A stretch of DNA of 64,000 nucleotides, from assembly GCF_965641715.1 (NCBI RefSeq), contig NZ_OZ282453.1; one strand, written 5' to 3'. This stretch comes from Escherichia coli. GTDB taxonomy: Bacteria; Pseudomonadota; Gammaproteobacteria; Enterobacterales; Enterobacteriaceae. A program made the position numbers and the translations under genes. Each line of letters begins with the position of its first letter. The stretch's first letter is position 1. The notes under the pieces were generated by a model. It was not told the DNA's origin. It saw only the letters and a list, made by a program, of their open reading frames with translations, and made no database searches. Positions 52,555 through 58,884 of the stretch are shown here, in pieces.

Positions 52555-52586
52555 AAAAATGCCAGCCTCCGGGCTGGCGTTTTTTA
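52555..52586. terminator. Bidirectional intrinsic terminator shared by eno (+) and the convergent TPM/LemA operon (-)
   Basis: aaaaat-gccagcc-tccg-ggctggc-gttttttat: GC stem flanked by an A-run and a T-run. Confidence 0.75.
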
Positions 52587-52594
52587 TGGTTGAG

Positions 52595-53488
52595 TTACCA
52601 GCGACCGGACGCGCCGCCACCGCCAGAAGAACCGCCCCCGCCGCTAAATCCGCCGCCACTTGAGCCTCCACCGGAAGAGGATGAAGAAGAACCTTTTCTT
52701 GAAGCTCTATCTTTACTGAGTTTTTTGTATTTGGCGCGTAGCTTTTTATTGACGATAAGCCAAAAAATAACCAGTGGTACGATCGCAAAAGGCGTTAACA
52801 TACCGCAGGCAACGATTAAATTGGTCCATGGTCCTGGCTCGGCAACATAGAGGAATACCATCCCGTAAATGGCGCCAGTGAGAGTGATCCAGGGTAAATT
52901 CGACGGATCGGTAAAAACAATAAAATATGAAAGTACCGCCAGCAATATAATTACAGCAAGCGATAATGGAATAGGGGGATTGATACTGTAATAATCCCCC
53001 CTGTCTTCCGGTAATTCACCATTCAACAGAAGCGCGCCGATATTTTCGCTTGCCAGTGTTAATCCACCCATCAGGTCGTCACTTTTGAAGGCAGGGATCA
53101 ATATATCCCTGATAATCTTCGCCGCTTGCAGGTCGGTTACCACCCCTTCCAGCCCGTAGCCAACCTCAATACGAACAGCATGATCCTCCCTGGCAACCAG
53201 AAGTAAAATACCATCGTTTCTCTGCTTATCTCCCAGTTTCCAGCTATCAAAAACCCTTGTAGCATATTGTTCAATGGAATCGTCTCCGGTGGACGGCACT
53301 ACTAATACAGCGACCTGCGCCCGTGTTTTATGTGTAATATCCTGCAGTTGCTGTGTCAGTGATTGTTGTTCAGACGTGCTTAACGTACCAGTAATATCGG
53401 TCACCTGTTGGCGCAGCTCCGGCACAGCAATTTGCTGGGCAAGCCCGGGAAGGCTCCACAAAGCAAGTAGAATAAAGATTAAGCGCAT
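52595..53488 (-). CDS. TPM-domain membrane protein, YgcG family, paralog 1 (promoter-distal)
   Basis: ORF track 52595-53500 begins at a non-ATG codon; likely ATG start at MRLIFILLALWSLPGLA (signal peptide); TPM fold motifs (LVVPSTGDDSIEQYATRVFDSWK, DGILLLVA, RIEVGYGLEG); C-terminal TM segments then Ser/Gly tail ...GGGSSGGGGASGRW. Confidence 0.8.
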   Translation of the reverse strand: MRLIFILLALWSLPGLAQQIAVPELRQQVTDITGTLSTSEQQSLTQQLQDITHKTRAQVAVLVVPSTGDDSIEQYATRVFDSWKLGDKQRNDGILLLVAREDHAVRIEVGYGLEGVVTDLQAAKIIRDILIPAFKSDDLMGGLTLASENIGALLLNGELPEDRGDYYSINPPIPLSLAVIILLAVLSYFIVFTDPSNLPWITLTGAIYGMVFLYVAEPGPWTNLIVACGMLTPFAIVPLVIFWLIVNKKLRAKYKKLSKDRASRKGSSSSSSGGGSSGGGFSGGGGSSGGGGASGRW

Positions 53489-53493
53489 TACGA

Positions 53494-54642
53494 TCACCAA
53501 CGGCCGGATGAACCGCCGCCTCCTGAAGAACCGCCACCACCGCGGAAAGAATTCCTCGACGAAGAGCGAGAATGAGCATTACGATTCCCCGTTTTCCTGT
53601 TGCTTTTTTCTCCTGACCCCAGCTTAAGATTGCCAGTAAATTTGGCCACAATGATCAGCAGAACGATGCCAGCAATGGTTATTGGGCCGATAAAATGATC
53701 AATTAACCCAATAATTGTTGAGATGAATGCAATATCTTTATTACTGGCGAACACCAGGCACCATCCCACAATAATTATCAGCATCACGACAAACAATGAA
53801 TTTCGTCCTGATTCACGAACCTGCGGAGTCTTCTTTTGTTTTTTCACTTTAGCGTTTTTATTTTTTGGGGCCAGCATCATAGGAAATACGCGGCACAAAT
53901 TAAAAACTACCGCGAGACGCTGCTTGCAGGTTGTTGCTAACAATAAACTAAAACAAACGACCGATACCCGCCGAATGATGACATCGTCCTGAAAGGAGAA
54001 AAACCAGACCATAGGGGTAATCATCGATATCATCCATATGCCACGCCGTGGGCGGCTGGCAAATCGCCAGAGGACAACGATGGCAACGATCATCAGCAGT
54101 GTCCAGGCAAGACATGGCAGCGAACGTTGCGGATTAGCAAACAGATGATTGGCTAAAGCATCCAAAGGGCTAAGGTTCGCTTTGATATGGGTAAACTGTG
54201 CGATGCTTTCAATTCCGCCCGTTAATCCAGCAAAGAGATTGTTTTTTTCGAATTCTGGCTGCATATGGTAACGAACAATTTGCGCAGCTTGTTCCGGCGG
54301 CAACATCTCTTCCAGTCCATGTCCAATCTTCATTGACGCCAGCCCTTCCGGCCATACGACGAGAATTAAGATACCTTCGCCATATCGCTTCTCTCCAACG
54401 GGTTTCCAGTGATATACCCCGTATCTCTGCGAGGCTGCAAGTTTAATGTTTTTGCCCCCTGTGGTCGGCGTAACCAACACGGCCACCTGGAAGTGGTTTT
54501 GCTGCTCGAGAGTCTGTAATTGTTGAGTTAAAGCAGTTTGTTCTTCTGTCGTTAATGTCCCGGTTAAGTCAGTCACTGAAGGCAATCGTTCAGCGAATAC
54601 CTGAAAACCGCATAGCATCAGAAGTAAGAGAAAAATACGCAT
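53494..54642 (-). CDS. TPM-domain membrane protein, divergent paralog 2 with long polytopic C-terminal region
   Basis: 382 aa; signal peptide; TPM-like N-terminal domain; several hydrophobic segments; tail ...RGGGGSSGGGGSSGRW; 5-nt gap to paralog 1 start. Confidence 0.75.
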   Translation of the reverse strand: MRIFLLLLMLCGFQVFAERLPSVTDLTGTLTTEEQTALTQQLQTLEQQNHFQVAVLVTPTTGGKNIKLAASQRYGVYHWKPVGEKRYGEGILILVVWPEGLASMKIGHGLEEMLPPEQAAQIVRYHMQPEFEKNNLFAGLTGGIESIAQFTHIKANLSPLDALANHLFANPQRSLPCLAWTLLMIVAIVVLWRFASRPRRGIWMISMITPMVWFFSFQDDVIIRRVSVVCFSLLLATTCKQRLAVVFNLCRVFPMMLAPKNKNAKVKKQKKTPQVRESGRNSLFVVMLIIIVGWCLVFASNKDIAFISTIIGLIDHFIGPITIAGIVLLIIVAKFTGNLKLGSGEKSNRKTGNRNAHSRSSSRNSFRGGGGSSGGGGSSGRW

Positions 54643-54656
54643 ATCAATTCCTTTTG

Positions 54657-55550
54657 TTACCAGCGCCCGGAAGCGCCACCGCCACCAGATGAACCGCCAC
54701 CACCGCTGAAATTGTCATTGTTGAATGAAGAGGATGACGATGATGAATAGTGGGAGGAAGAATTGCTTCTTGTATGGCGTGATGGCTGGTTGACATCACG
54801 CATCAAATCCCGAACTTTTTTGCCGAAGGGGGTAAAAGCGATGGCGACAGCCAGGAACGGTGTGGCGAAGCAGAGTAATGTTGCGAGTACTCCCCAGCTT
54901 CCGCTGAAGCCTGCTATAGGTAAAACAAAGGCCAGTACAATAGCTGCGAAGCAAATTACTCCCAGCGTTTTGATATATCCTCTGGCAGAAATAAACGTCA
55001 GTACTATCGCCCAGACTAACAATGCCCACCAACCGCTAAAGGGCAAAGGGTGATCGGTCGGTGTTATCGTTGCTAAATTATTCCCCGTAAGACGACTTTC
55101 AATATCGCTGATCCCCTTTTGTAAACCGCCAGCCAGGTCGCCTTTTTTAAATGCAGGAATAATACTGTTGCGAATAATTTTCCCGGACTGTGCATCCGTA
55201 ATAATACCTTCCAGCCCGTAACCGATTTCAATACGCACGGTATGATCCTGCCAGGCGACTAACAGTAGAACGCCATCATCACGGTCTTTATCACCCGGTT
55301 TCCAGCTATCGAATACCCGCGTTGCGTACTGCTCGATGGTTTCATCGCCTGTTGTATCAACCACTAACACGACCAACTGTGCGTGGTTTTTTTGCGTCAG
55401 GGCTTTAATCTGGTTGGTCAGGGTGTTTACTTCGCTGTTTGTTAATGTGCCGGTTAAGTCATTCACATACTTGGGGGATTCAGGTACTGGAATTTGTGTG
55501 GCAAACACAGATGAACAGAAGAAAGCCATAAGGAAGATAAAATTTCGCAT
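54657..55550 (-). CDS. TPM-domain membrane protein, YgcG family, paralog 3
   Basis: ORF track 54657-55580; likely start at MRNFIFLMAFFCSSVFA (55550); shares IEQYATRVFDSWK and RIEIGYGLEG blocks with paralog 1; tail ...SGGGGSSGGGGASGRW. Confidence 0.8.
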   Translation of the reverse strand: MRNFIFLMAFFCSSVFATQIPVPESPKYVNDLTGTLTNSEVNTLTNQIKALTQKNHAQLVVLVVDTTGDETIEQYATRVFDSWKPGDKDRDDGVLLLVAWQDHTVRIEIGYGLEGIITDAQSGKIIRNSIIPAFKKGDLAGGLQKGISDIESRLTGNNLATITPTDHPLPFSGWWALLVWAIVLTFISARGYIKTLGVICFAAIVLAFVLPIAGFSGSWGVLATLLCFATPFLAVAIAFTPFGKKVRDLMRDVNQPSRHTRSNSSSHYSSSSSSSFNNDNFSGGGGSSGGGGASGRW

Positions 55551-55563
55551 AGAACTTCCCCGC

Positions 55564-56184
55564 TTAATGAGCATTAGCATTCTGGCTAAAATCTATTGTT
55601 GGGGCTTTACTTACTGCGGCGACATCATCCGGTAAATAATTTTTCTTTGGCGTGTAATCCATGACCTTTGCGGTTAATACAGCGGGGAATTTGCGGATAG
55701 TGACATTATATTGTTCAATGGCTTTAATATATCTTCCTCGCGCAACGGCAATTCTATTTTCACTTCCTTCGAGCTGTACCATTAAGTTTTGATAGAGCTC
55801 TTGAGCCTTTAACTCAGGGTAACGCTCACTAATTATCGTTAACTGACCGAGAGTGCGAGTCACCTGCGCCTGGGCCTGTTGCCAGGCTTGTAATTTTTGT
55901 GCATCTCCGGGAGCTTGCTGAAGATCGCTGCTGGCGCGATTAGCCTGGCTACGAGCCAATGTTACGGCTTCCAAAACGTCTTTTTCATGGTTGGAATAAC
56001 CTTTAATACTGGCGACAAGATTAGGAATAAGATCGGCGCGACGTTGATATTGATTTAATACCTCAGACCAGGAGGCGTTAACCTGCTCATCATAGGTTTG
56101 AATATCGTTATATCCACAGCCTGATAAATTGAAAATAAATATAATTACGATGAATATCCTGAGCATGTTTAAATCCTTTTTCAT
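55564..56184 (-). CDS. lemA: LemA-family lipoprotein
   Basis: 206 aa; lipobox NLSGC; LemA blocks QRRADLIPNLV, ERYPELKA, GSENRIAVARGRY; stop lies 13 nt upstream of TPM paralog 3 start. Confidence 0.8.
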   Translation of the reverse strand: MKKDLNMLRIFIVIIFIFNLSGCGYNDIQTYDEQVNASWSEVLNQYQRRADLIPNLVASIKGYSNHEKDVLEAVTLARSQANRASSDLQQAPGDAQKLQAWQQAQAQVTRTLGQLTIISERYPELKAQELYQNLMVQLEGSENRIAVARGRYIKAIEQYNVTIRKFPAVLTAKVMDYTPKKNYLPDDVAAVSKAPTIDFSQNANAH

Positions 56185-56338
56185 TAATTCCTTAAAACAT
56201 AATACGCCGCTTCATTTTATTCTTTATGATCTAATGCACTTTTTGCCTTAAACCTGCCTGTAACAGAATGTTAATAAGACATGATTGTTGCGGCAGGATC
56301 TGCAATAATTAACAATTATCCACTTCACAGAGAATGCT

Positions 56339-57010
56339 ATGCAGTACCCGATTAACGAGATGTTCCAGACCCTGCAAGGTGAGGGTTACTTTACCGGCGT
56401 CCCCGCCATTTTTATTCGTTTACAGGGATGCCCGGTTGGCTGTGCCTGGTGCGACACCAAACACACCTGGGAAAAGCTTGAGGATCGGGAAGTCTCCCTT
56501 TTCAGCATTCTGGCGAAGACCAAAGAGAGTGATAAGTGGGGGGCGGCGAGCAGTGAAGACTTGTTGGCTGTCATTAGTCGCCAGGGATACACCGCGCGGC
56601 ATGTGGTGATTACGGGTGGTGAGCCTTGCATTCATGATTTGCTACCACTGACTGATCTGCTCGAAAAGAACGGTTTTAGCTGCCAGATCGAGACCAGTGG
56701 TACTCATGAGGTACGCTGTACACCGAATACCTGGGTTACCGTATCGCCAAAGCTGAACATGCGCGGCGGCTATGAAGTGTTGTCACAGGCACTGGAGCGA
56801 GCCAACGAAATCAAGCACCCAGTGGGACGCGTACGTGATATTGAAGCACTGGATGAACTTTTGGCGACGCTGACCGATGATAAACCGCGAGTCATTGCAC
56901 TGCAGCCGATTAGCCAAAAGGATGATGCCACACGTTTGTGCATTGAAACCTGCATTGCGCGTAATTGGCGTTTGTCGATGCAAACCCATAAATATTTAAA
57001 TATTGCCTGA
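56339..57010 (+). CDS. queE: 7-carboxy-7-deazaguanine synthase (radical SAM)
   Basis: 223 aa with CPVGCAWC cluster motif; recognised as QueE/YgcF. Confidence 0.9.
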   Translation: MQYPINEMFQTLQGEGYFTGVPAIFIRLQGCPVGCAWCDTKHTWEKLEDREVSLFSILAKTKESDKWGAASSEDLLAVISRQGYTARHVVITGGEPCIHDLLPLTDLLEKNGFSCQIETSGTHEVRCTPNTWVTVSPKLNMRGGYEVLSQALERANEIKHPVGRVRDIEALDELLATLTDDKPRVIALQPISQKDDATRLCIETCIARNWRLSMQTHKYLNIA

Positions 57011-57149: not shown

Positions 57150-57348
57150 ATTTTTCGTTGGAGTGAAAATTATTGCGGTAAAGTTTGGTAGATTTTAGTT
57201 TGTATAGAGTTATTTTAAATATTTACCTTTTTAATCAATGGGTTAAGTGCTCTTTAACATAATGGATGTGTTGTTTGTGTGATACTGTAAAGTTGGTAGA
57301 TTGTGACTGGCTTAAAAAATCATTAATTAATAATAGGTTATGTTTAGA
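57150..57348 (+). promoter_or_regulatory. CRISPR leader (AT-rich, promoter and integration-host-factor region)
   Basis: AT-rich stretch ending ...tggtagattgtgactggcttaaaaaatcattaattaataataggttatgtttaga immediately 5' of the first repeat. Confidence 0.65.
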
Positions 57349-58353
57349 GAGTTCCCCGCGCCAGCGGGGATAAACCGGGCGACCGGCAGGCGGCCTATGC
57401 GTTTTTCACGAGTTCCCCGCGCCAGCGGGGATAAACCGGGGCATTAGAATAACTTAAATGGAAAAAGAAAGAGTTCCCCGCGCCAGCGGGGATAAACCGG
57501 CCTTATCTCTGCTTGGATTCTCTGCTGATGTGAGTTCCCCGCGCCAGCGGGGATAAACCGCGGCGCACACGTTGTATTTGTGCTGCCTATGCGAGTTCCC
57601 CGCGCCAGCGGGGATAAACCGCCCACCAGCGCGTTTTTTGCCGGGGCCATAGTGAGTTCCCCGCGCCAGCGGGGATAAACCGGCAATGCTCGTACGCCGT
57701 CTCACTCCGCGTGAGAGTTCCCCGCGCCAGCGGGGATAAACCGCGGGGGCGCGGGGTGTGGACGCATTCACAGCAGAGTTCCCCGCGCCAGCGGGGATAA
57801 ACCGTATATGCAGTGCTGACAGACCGGGGGGCGCAAGAGTTCCCCGCGCCAGCGGGGATAAACCGGCAACGCAGGAACCGCAGGCGGTTCGTCATCTGAG
57901 TTCCCCGCGCCAGCGGGGATAAACCGCTTGCCGCGCCAGGGTATTTTTGTGTGGTCGTGAGTTCCCCGCGCCAGCGGGGATAAACCGTCCGCAACAACTC
58001 AGAGAACCAGACACCAAGCGAGTTCCCCGCGCCAGCGGGGATAAACCGTTTCGCCGCCGGGAAAATTTATATTAACGTTGGAGTTCCCCGCGCCAGCGGG
58101 GATAAACCGCGAAGCACGTCGGGGACCGTAAGGCGTTTGAAGAGTTCCCCGCGCCAGCGGGGATAAACCGCAATCCACGCCGAAGCGCTGGAAATGGAAA
58201 AAGAGTTCCCCGCGCCAGCGGGGATAAACCGTTTACCTGCTCGGTGATATCGTCCTGCAAATCGAGTTCCCCGCGCCAGCGGGGATAAACCGGGTACAAA
58301 AGAGGCCCCATTCTGGCAGGGCTCAAGTTCCCCGCGCCAGCGGGGATAAACCA
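57349..58353 (+). CRISPR. Type I-E CRISPR array: 17 repeats of 29 bp, 16 spacers of 32 bp
   Basis: Repeat GAGTTCCCCGCGCCAGCGGGGATAAACCG with exact 61-bp period from 57349; terminal repeat degenerate (AAGTTCCCCGCGCCAGCGGGGATAAACCA, 58325-58353); leader at the 57349 end sets + orientation. Confidence 0.97.
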
Positions 58354-58824
58354 CCATATAACCCATTATCTCTTTCTCAAGTTTTTATATTAGCAGTACT
58401 CGTAATAAGCAACATATCCACGTAACACCTCATGTTCAGAATAGCTCGCCATATATGAGAAGTTCACAATTATCGATACAAAAAATTAAATTTAATCAAA
58501 GTGTTATTTGTATGATGCTTAAACCGTTAAGAAATTTTCATATATTATTTTTTTTAATGTTGAATTAATGTCTATTAATTTTTTCTTCAGGATAATAGTT
58601 TGTTTTTTAAGCTTGTTATTCATTGATTAAGTAATAAATCAGAAAAATTGTCTTTGTTTTGAGGCTAATGAGTGGTTTTACATAACCGCCTCTATACGCT
58701 GTTGATGAATAGTTCTTATGAATAAAGATATCCAGTTCATACTTTAAGTGAAAATTGATAAAGTGCGATTCGTATTGTCTTTTATTCTAAAGACATCGAG
58801 TGTAGTTAATATTCCTTGTAAAAA

Positions 58825-58884
58825 CAGGGATAAACCGAACTAGTTAAAGTTTTTATTATGTTCCCCGCGTCAGCGGGGATAACC
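58825..58884 (+). CRISPR. Degenerate CRISPR repeat remnant (decayed second mini-array)
   Basis: cagggataaaccg (58825-58837), 22-nt spacer-like gap, then gttccccgcgtcagcggggataacc (58860-58884); preceded by a second AT-rich leader-like stretch. Confidence 0.6.

Follow-up and report, generated by a model that had tools for sequence, protein, structure and literature searches.

A four-gene lemA-TPM operon between eno and queE as an old haplotype of a polymorphic Escherichia coli locus

Why does an Escherichia coli chromosome carry lemA and three genes for TPM-domain proteins at a site where K-12 has a single TPM gene, ygcG, and what might such a set of genes do? We addressed this question in a 64,000-nucleotide stretch of DNA (NCBI RefSeq assembly GCF_965641715.1, contig NZ_OZ282453.1), which is the window throughout this text and whose numbering is used unless another locus is named. 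Four minus-strand genes follow one another between eno and queE, namely lemA (55564–56184; 206 residues in the open reading frame listing, or 200 if the start is Met7, ATG 56166), tpm1 (54657–55550; 297 residues from ATG 55550), tpm2 (53494–54642; 382 residues) and tpm3 (52595–53488; 297 residues from ATG 53488). The gaps of 13, 14 and 5 nucleotides given for these genes by an initial reading of the DNA (hereafter the sequence-only reading) agree with the open reading frame listing. The genes are tightly packed with either start of tpm3, whether ATG 53488 or the GTG used by RefSeq in an O157:H7 genome, which gives a 4-nucleotide overlap with the tpm2 stop.

All four genes matched the families that had been proposed for them when searched with hidden Markov models. 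LemA matched PF04011 over the whole model (E = 1.2e-48, model positions 1–149 of 149), and the products of tpm1, tpm2 and tpm3 matched PF04536, the TPM domain, near full length (E = 3.8e-41, 3e-21 and 3.5e-38, respectively; Pfam). The interval is an intact lemA-tpm1-tpm2-tpm3 operon and the Escherichia variant of a widespread LemA-TPM envelope module, from whose canonical form it departs in that all three of its TPM genes are long and the short one is missing. As the best explanation of the locus overall, we propose, with about even confidence, that this operon haplotype encodes four proteins that would act together in a stress-induced complex at the inner membrane.

Age of the four-gene form and its relation to K-12

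The sequence-only reading had taken the operon for a strain-variable expansion in which the first and third TPM paralogs were close duplicates. The variability is borne out (tpm2-tpm3 DNA was found in 1,114 of 5,426 complete E. coli genomes), whereas the expansion is not, and neither are the close duplicates, since tpm1 and tpm3 are only 44% identical. The tpm2 product is 36–39% identical to either of the others, over the TPM domain only, and the distances among the three paralogs are about the same as those to the one TPM gene that Klebsiella quasipneumoniae and Tenebrionibacter each have. A recent, strain-specific tandem expansion of a single K-12 ygcG would suit the presence of three tandem TPM genes of similar architecture, the one TPM gene of K-12 at eno-queE, and three 55-nucleotide direct repeats on the minus strand (52594–52648, 53493–53547 and 54656–54710) that are common to the TPM gene 3′ ends, encode their Gly-rich tails and are 75–84% identical between copies. 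Such an expansion is already contradicted, and we regard it as highly improbable: the paralogs are 36–44% identical mutually and 31–41% identical to K-12 YgcG, the Klebsiella and Tenebrionibacter genes are at least as near to them as they are to one another, the same three orthologs occur in Escherichia albertii, Klebsiella spallanzanii carries lemA at eno-queE together with one TPM gene and one TPM2-like gene, and K-12 itself has kept a relic of lemA.

In E. albertii the three tpm orthologs stand in the same order (84%, 78% and 88% identity) and LemA is 96% identical. Ratios of non-synonymous to synonymous substitution rates (dN/dS, Nei-Gojobori) between the two species were 0.03 for lemA, 0.18 for tpm1, 0.26 for tpm2 and 0.14 for tpm3, implying that all four genes are functional and under purifying selection; LemA is the most constrained of the products, and the membrane region of TPM2 (dN/dS 0.40) is the least constrained part. 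On these comparisons, the four-gene form is an old haplotype that selection has maintained at a polymorphic, recombining locus, and no recent expansion.

Alignment with K-12 and other E. coli genomes, which had been proposed as a check, showed that the four genes are not universal and that the K-12 form lacks lemA. On the eno side, homology to K-12 spans the terminator and the last 82 nucleotides of tpm3, which encode its tail, and ends at window position 52676; on the queE side it runs through the intergenic region into the first 53–64 nucleotides of lemA. The DNA between these two breakpoints is unrelated. The position of ygcG in K-12 is held here by tpm3. K-12 YgcG is 37–41% identical to the tpm1 and tpm3 products and 31% identical to that of tpm2 over the TPM domain, no segment of it is closer to one allele than to another, and in the membrane region its identity to any other is 15–26%. 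An origin of K-12 ygcG as a recombinant of tpm1 and tpm3 was considered and rejected, as the gene is equally far from all alleles in each segment.

The sequence-only reading gave K-12 a single gene, ygcG, at this site; it is indeed the one TPM gene there, and a small gene, yqcG, has to be added. With 46 codons (L003 2582–2722 in a K-12-type genome, homologous to window 56121–56199), yqcG overlaps the segment that is homologous to the lemA 5′ end, and it was matched by a DNA profile of five enterobacterial lemA genes (E = 8e-5). In the alignment, yqcG opens at a new ATG further upstream, in a different frame, and a 1-nucleotide deletion shifts it into the frame of lemA, which it follows across the hydrophobic signal-peptide core (F..IIFIF) but without the lipobox. 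We also considered yqcG as an in-frame fusion of the 5′ and 3′ ends of lemA and rejected it, because the similarity at the 3′ end stood out (11 of 1000 shuffles) against E. albertii lemA only and was not significant for the four other lemA genes. Judged from the alignments, yqcG descends from the 5′ end of lemA as a relic; at its 3′ end the similarity is suggestive only. Intact lemA is found at eno-queE in K. quasipneumoniae and K. spallanzanii, and therefore the lemA-bearing state is ancestral and the K-12 state derived. The K-12 form is thus the reduced haplotype of an old polymorphic locus, and the form in the window is no expanded version of it.

Haplotypes and surroundings of the eno-queE site

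In a census of the 5,426 complete E. coli genomes, the lemA core was present in 1,454. These comprise the four-gene form, recognized by tpm2-tpm3 DNA (1,114 genomes, 20.5%), and a second haplotype in which lemA is accompanied by an intact tpm1-like gene and an unrelated membrane open reading frame of 120 residues (340 genomes, 6.3%). The K-12 form, ygcG with yqcG, accounts by subtraction for about 3,970 genomes (73%). Strains with the four-gene form include EDL933 and other O157:H7 strains, O145, NU14 and Nissle 1917. In the 340-genome haplotype, tpm2 and tpm3 are replaced by the 120-residue reading frame (L002 1692–2054), which is hydrophobic by eye and annotated as hypothetical. The tpm1-like gene at L002 2090–2995 and at L090 3903–4810 is given in RefSeq as a partial pseudogene, yet its reading frame is intact to ...ASGRW.

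Exchange between haplotypes is visible in Nissle 1917, whose third gene (L090 1870–2742) is chimeric: residues 1 to ~80 are of the tpm3 type and the rest is of the K-12 YgcG type (>90% identical), with the junction at a conserved IEQYATRVFD motif. Another 343 genomes diverge from the window in the same stretch of tpm3 and probably have the Nissle form.

Could the genes instead have arrived as a horizontally acquired island, for example an anti-phage defence or mobile cassette, inserted beside a CRISPR (clustered regularly interspaced short palindromic repeats) array? The impression that the region is more AT-rich than its surroundings was confirmed by measurement, with 46.4% G+C against 50.6% for the window (the third percentile of equal-sized windows) and 41.9% for lemA alone. 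This low G+C content would fit an acquired island, as would the variable presence among strains, the adjacent array, and the hypervariable membrane anchors, which are 15–26% identical between alleles. However, PADLOC-DB 2.0 gave no defence-model match for the four proteins at E ≤ 0.01, the open reading frame listing contains no mobility genes in the interval, and no true plasmid copy was found in PLSDB, where the only three matches were to records of 4.8–4.9 Mb that are evidently chromosomes. Moreover, the synteny of lemA at eno-queE extends to Klebsiella and E. albertii, and breakpoints lying inside conserved gene ends, together with the Nissle chimera, point to allelic exchange by homologous recombination and not to insertion. 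We therefore consider acquisition as an island improbable. Phage records held only distant LemA homologs (<60% identity). As a separate observation, the three PLSDB records, NZ_CP141089.1, NZ_CP134663.1 and NZ_OL790696.1, are evidently E. coli chromosomes listed as plasmids.

The borders of the operon are as the sequence-only reading had described them, with divergence from queE on one side and a bidirectional terminator common to the operon and eno on the other. The start of queE lies at 56339, and the divergent lemA/queE regulatory region (56185–56338, assigned to neither strand) is homologous to the K-12 yqcG-queE intergenic region. At the other end, a bidirectional intrinsic terminator (52556–52586) separates tpm3 from the convergent eno gene. 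Its hairpin, GCCAGCC-TCCG-GGCTGGC at 52561–52578, has a G+C-rich stem of 7 bp with an A-run on one side and a T-run on the other, and should therefore work in both directions; this segment is 97.9% conserved relative to K-12. A search of Rfam over the interval and its surroundings returned no RNA family. Beyond queE, a CRISPR array at 57348–58354 comprises 17 copies of the repeat GAGTTCCCCGCGCCAGCGGGGATAAACCG at a 61-nucleotide period; the repeat resembles the E. coli type I-E repeat, and a degenerate copy lies near 58856.

Predicted proteins and their candidate role at the envelope

Signal peptides or a lipobox had been noted on all four products, and inspection of the sequences agrees. The LemA N-terminus, MKKDLNMLRIFIVIIFIFNLSGC, begins with a basic N-region and continues through a hydrophobic core to the lipobox L-S-G-C with Cys23; a helical-bundle domain comes next, and LemA of Thermotoga maritima is a relative of solved structure (PDB 2ETD, E = 4e-32). 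All 19 of the 19 proteobacterial homologs compared, which range from Enterobacterales to Leptospiraceae, have the Cys of the lipobox. LemA is thus predicted to be exported and lipid-anchored at Cys23, with its helical bundle in the periplasm.

The putative signal peptides of the tpm1, tpm2 and tpm3 products end in VFA, VFA and GLA. In TPM1 and TPM3, the TPM domain is followed by three hydrophobic segments, a K/R-rich stretch and a Ser/Gly-rich tail ending in SGGGGASGRW. As had been suggested, the second paralog is divergent and has a longer polytopic membrane region: TPM2 consists of a signal peptide, the TPM domain, at least five hydrophobic segments, a Lys-rich loop (residues 260–277) and a Gly-rich GRW tail. 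The YgcG/BA41-type layout (signal peptide, TPM domain, helices, and a Gly/Ser-rich tail ending in Trp) is present in all three. TPM relatives of known structure are 7TBR, BA41 (5ANP) and PG0361 (2KW7), of which TPM1 matched the first two at E = 3e-22 and 5e-20, respectively. Alignment to 7TBR, whose metal ligands are unpublished, shows that an Asp, a Leu at +5 and a Glu at +9 are present. Each TPM protein is predicted to have a cleavable signal peptide, a periplasmic TPM domain and an odd number of poorly conserved inner-membrane helices. Each also ends in a basic and then Ser/Gly-rich tail with a conserved C-terminal GRW, and we infer that this tail is cytoplasmic, given the periplasmic TPM domain, the odd helix count and the positive-inside rule. 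On the opposite strand, a proline-rich open reading frame of 86 codons (window 52590–52850, plus strand) is the antisense of the Gly codons of the tpm3 tail and no gene.

TPM2 stands apart in its distribution. Full-length relatives come from Escherichia only, and a search of 1.84 billion representative proteins with its membrane region gave 11 matches, each of them in Escherichia or Klebsiella. The Klebsiella homologs (P0147, P0150, P0151 and P0155; in K. spallanzanii, L089 5001–5858) have cleanly lost the TPM domain and retain the signal peptide, the membrane region and the Gly-rich GRW tail. An AlphaFold model of full-length TPM2 built from 16 homologs was unusable (predicted local distance difference test score, pLDDT, 39.9; predicted template-modelling score, pTM, 0.26).

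We assessed how regularly LemA and TPM genes associate by scanning one genome per species with a LemA alignment, which yielded 80 LemA loci, mostly from Beta- and Gammaproteobacteria with Bradyrhizobium and Leptospira in addition; TPM genes in these loci were detected with locally built profiles. At least one TPM gene lay directly downstream of lemA in 69 of the 80 loci, and the sequence-only reading was right to call this co-occurrence widespread. Exactly two TPM genes followed lemA in 58 loci, one in 11 (many of them cut by contig ends), three in E. albertii only, and 10 loci had no adjacent TPM gene. The first TPM gene after lemA was always of the long YgcG/BA41 type with a tail ending in ...SG[RSDG]W; this Gly-rich, Trp-ending tail was found in ~50 long TPM proteins of the 80 loci, and its C-terminal SG[RSDG]W is conserved across phyla. 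The second gene encodes a protein of ~165 residues with no signal peptide and no membrane helix (L005–L083; e.g. L009 8749–9258), which is probably cytoplasmic and has the conserved motifs H.GEIRF.VE, LRVWDTE.NNGVLIYLLLADH.VEIVADRGI and NELPD.PV.L. No such short TPM gene was found in the operon or elsewhere in the 64-kb window, and none lay beside lemA in the Enterobacterales loci examined. Among other neighbours, no gene family recurred in more than 12 of the 80 loci. The linkage of LemA with TPM genes across these loci implies a functional module.

What this module might do in E. coli can be approached through the relatives of its parts and through its upstream region. MamQ is required for magnetosome formation (PMC3905215). 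The LemA-like domain of mycobacterial ML0451c has a predicted role as a membrane scaffold for PimA and EphE, and for TPM proteins the literature describes accessory or repair functions in membrane complexes, or else weak phosphatase or nucleotidase activity that depends on metal. After MamQ and ML0451c, LemA would be a membrane-associated helical scaffold, and the four proteins might assemble, under stress, into one complex on the periplasmic side of the inner membrane. By analogy with Psb32/TLP18.3, MOLO-1 and BA41/BA42, the TPM domains may serve as accessory or repair subunits that depend on metal and that may or may not have some weak activity as phosphatases or nucleotidases, and the three tpm paralogs would provide different membrane anchors.

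The stress component of this proposal comes from K-12. The region upstream of the operon is 90.8% identical to the K-12 yqcG-queE region over window 56132–56500. In K-12, that region binds phosphorylated PhoP (PhoP-P) in an electrophoretic mobility shift assay (PMC4974570) and is bound by sigma-S RNA polymerase in chromatin immunoprecipitation (PMC4447067), and the RefSeq name of YqcG is "cell envelope stress response protein". The operon is probably driven from the promoter region that it has in common with K-12 yqcG, and a response to envelope stress, PhoPQ and RpoS would then be expected. We hold the resulting picture, a stress-induced envelope scaffold or maintenance complex, with moderate-to-low confidence.

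Several points weigh against this picture. Stress induction is known for the K-12 relic yqcG only, and a consensus promoter scan gave no convincing sigma-70 match upstream of lemA, with an intragenic match only. The TPM literature states no consensus on the role of the domain, and our literature search found no paper on a LemA-TPM system, in line with the earlier statement that the pair has no established function. Of the LemA-TPM pairings put forward for structure prediction, LemA with TPM1 alone was modelled, and the AlphaFold model of a LemA-linker-TPM1 fusion, built on a paired alignment of 34 operons, reached a pTM of 0.61 and a pLDDT of 75.6, values that speak neither for nor against a direct complex. 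The residue directly after the lipid-modified Cys of LemA is Gly, which predicts outer-membrane sorting in E. coli. Finally, lemA is missing in 73% of complete E. coli genomes, so the locus is dispensable, and tpm1 of O157:H7 carries a TTA-to-TGA nonsense change at codon 225 that removes the last membrane helix and the tail (O157:H7 Z866, L001 3989–4663).

The last two observations might also mean that the locus is in decay, with little present function, and that its genes are being lost from E. coli. The loss of the TPM domain from the Klebsiella TPM2-like genes and the relaxed dN/dS of 0.40 in the TPM2 membrane region would fit such a course, as would the large share of genomes left with a lemA relic only. 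Against it stand dN/dS values well below 1 in all four genes and as low as 0.03 in lemA, reading frames that are intact in the window, in E. albertii and in Nissle 1917, and the retention of the three-TPM arrangement in both E. coli and E. albertii. Decay is accordingly doubtful, and we would give it little weight.

Under the Lol rule of E. coli, a Gly after the lipidated Cys predicts sorting to the outer membrane. The Gly in LemA fits a trans-periplasmic arrangement and not a purely inner-membrane one, and it is the starting point for an unlikely, still arguable alternative in which the operon would serve in trans-envelope sensing or tethering: LemA in the outer membrane would contact the periplasmic TPM domains, and the cytoplasmic GRW tails would relay the signal to a partner in the cytoplasm (for most Proteobacteria, the short TPM protein). 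This alternative draws further on the canonical operon, which encodes a short TPM protein lacking a signal peptide or helix and hence cytoplasmic, and on the conservation of C-terminal ...SG[RSDG]W across phyla; the RcsF-IgaA and NlpE-CpxA systems, whose layouts resemble it, also count in its favour. However, the operon encodes no output domain or regulator, the short TPM partner is absent from the window and from the lemA-adjacent positions in the Enterobacterales loci examined, and the LemA-TPM1 fusion model, at a pTM of 0.61, does not decide on contact either way. A fuller version, in which phages, colicins or host factors that target these proteins would have imposed diversifying or balancing selection on a trans-envelope device, as reflected in its three paralogs with hypervariable membrane anchors and in the deeply divergent alleles kept at the locus, is slightly less probable again. 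If the trans-envelope arrangement were true, the system would have escaped study since K-12 is a natural lemA-null strain.

Significance and comparison with known systems

LemA with a TPM/YgcG protein is among the more widespread conserved bacterial gene pairs without an assigned function. E. coli genetics has contributed little, K-12 and 73% of genomes having only the lemA relic yqcG; the genes are already annotated in >1,000 RefSeq genomes, while the system itself is undescribed in the literature found. Tractable strains outside K-12 that bear the module under purifying selection (such as Nissle 1917 and the O157:H7 and B2 lineages) make this conserved module testable in E. coli, and the species offers a natural allelic series in its three haplotypes, the O157:H7 tpm1 nonsense mutant and the tpm3/ygcG chimera of Nissle 1917. 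There may also be consequences for the neighbouring gene, as queE controls PhoQ-dependent filamentation and its upstream region differs by haplotype, so that its regulation in K-12 may not transfer to pathogenic strains.

A known counterpart, ygcG-yqcG of K-12 (b2778 region), occupies the same site with the same terminator, tail-coding 3′ end, upstream region and YgcG architecture, and differs in lacking the LemA domain and two of the TPM genes. MamQ resembles the LemA protein of the window in combining the LemA fold with an N-terminal membrane anchor, which for the latter is a prediction; the anchor is a transmembrane helix in MamQ and a putative lipobox here, and no magnetosome genes lie nearby. 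LemA scored 87.3 bits (E = 1e-24) against the NCBIfam MamQ model NF040966, far below the equivalog cut-off of 250. Psb32/TLP18.3/LMTP1, which act in photosystem II repair and maturation, and MOLO-1, an acetylcholine-receptor auxiliary subunit, likewise have a membrane-tethered extracytoplasmic TPM domain, but their membrane anchor is one helix, they lack a Gly-rich tail, and no LemA protein accompanies them. Against the NCBIfam Psb32 model NF047379, TPM1 and TPM3 scored 34.4 and 32.1 bits and TPM2 had no match, the equivalog cut-off being 160. By these scores, the MamQ and Psb32 families are relatives of the operon proteins, which are not members of either.

Another close likeness is to the canonical operon of LemA, one long TPM protein and one short TPM protein. 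In both arrangements lemA comes first, and a YgcG/BA41-type gene follows closely downstream on the same strand, at 13 nucleotides here. The operon in the window differs in having three long TPM genes against one and no short cytoplasmic TPM, and one of its long genes, tpm2, has a membrane domain restricted to its lineage. Its structurally characterized relatives are BA41 (PDB 5ANP) and BA42 (PDB 4OA3, 2MPB) of Bizionia argentinensis; BA41 has the same architecture as the long TPM proteins described here, down to a tail ending in GGGGASGGW.

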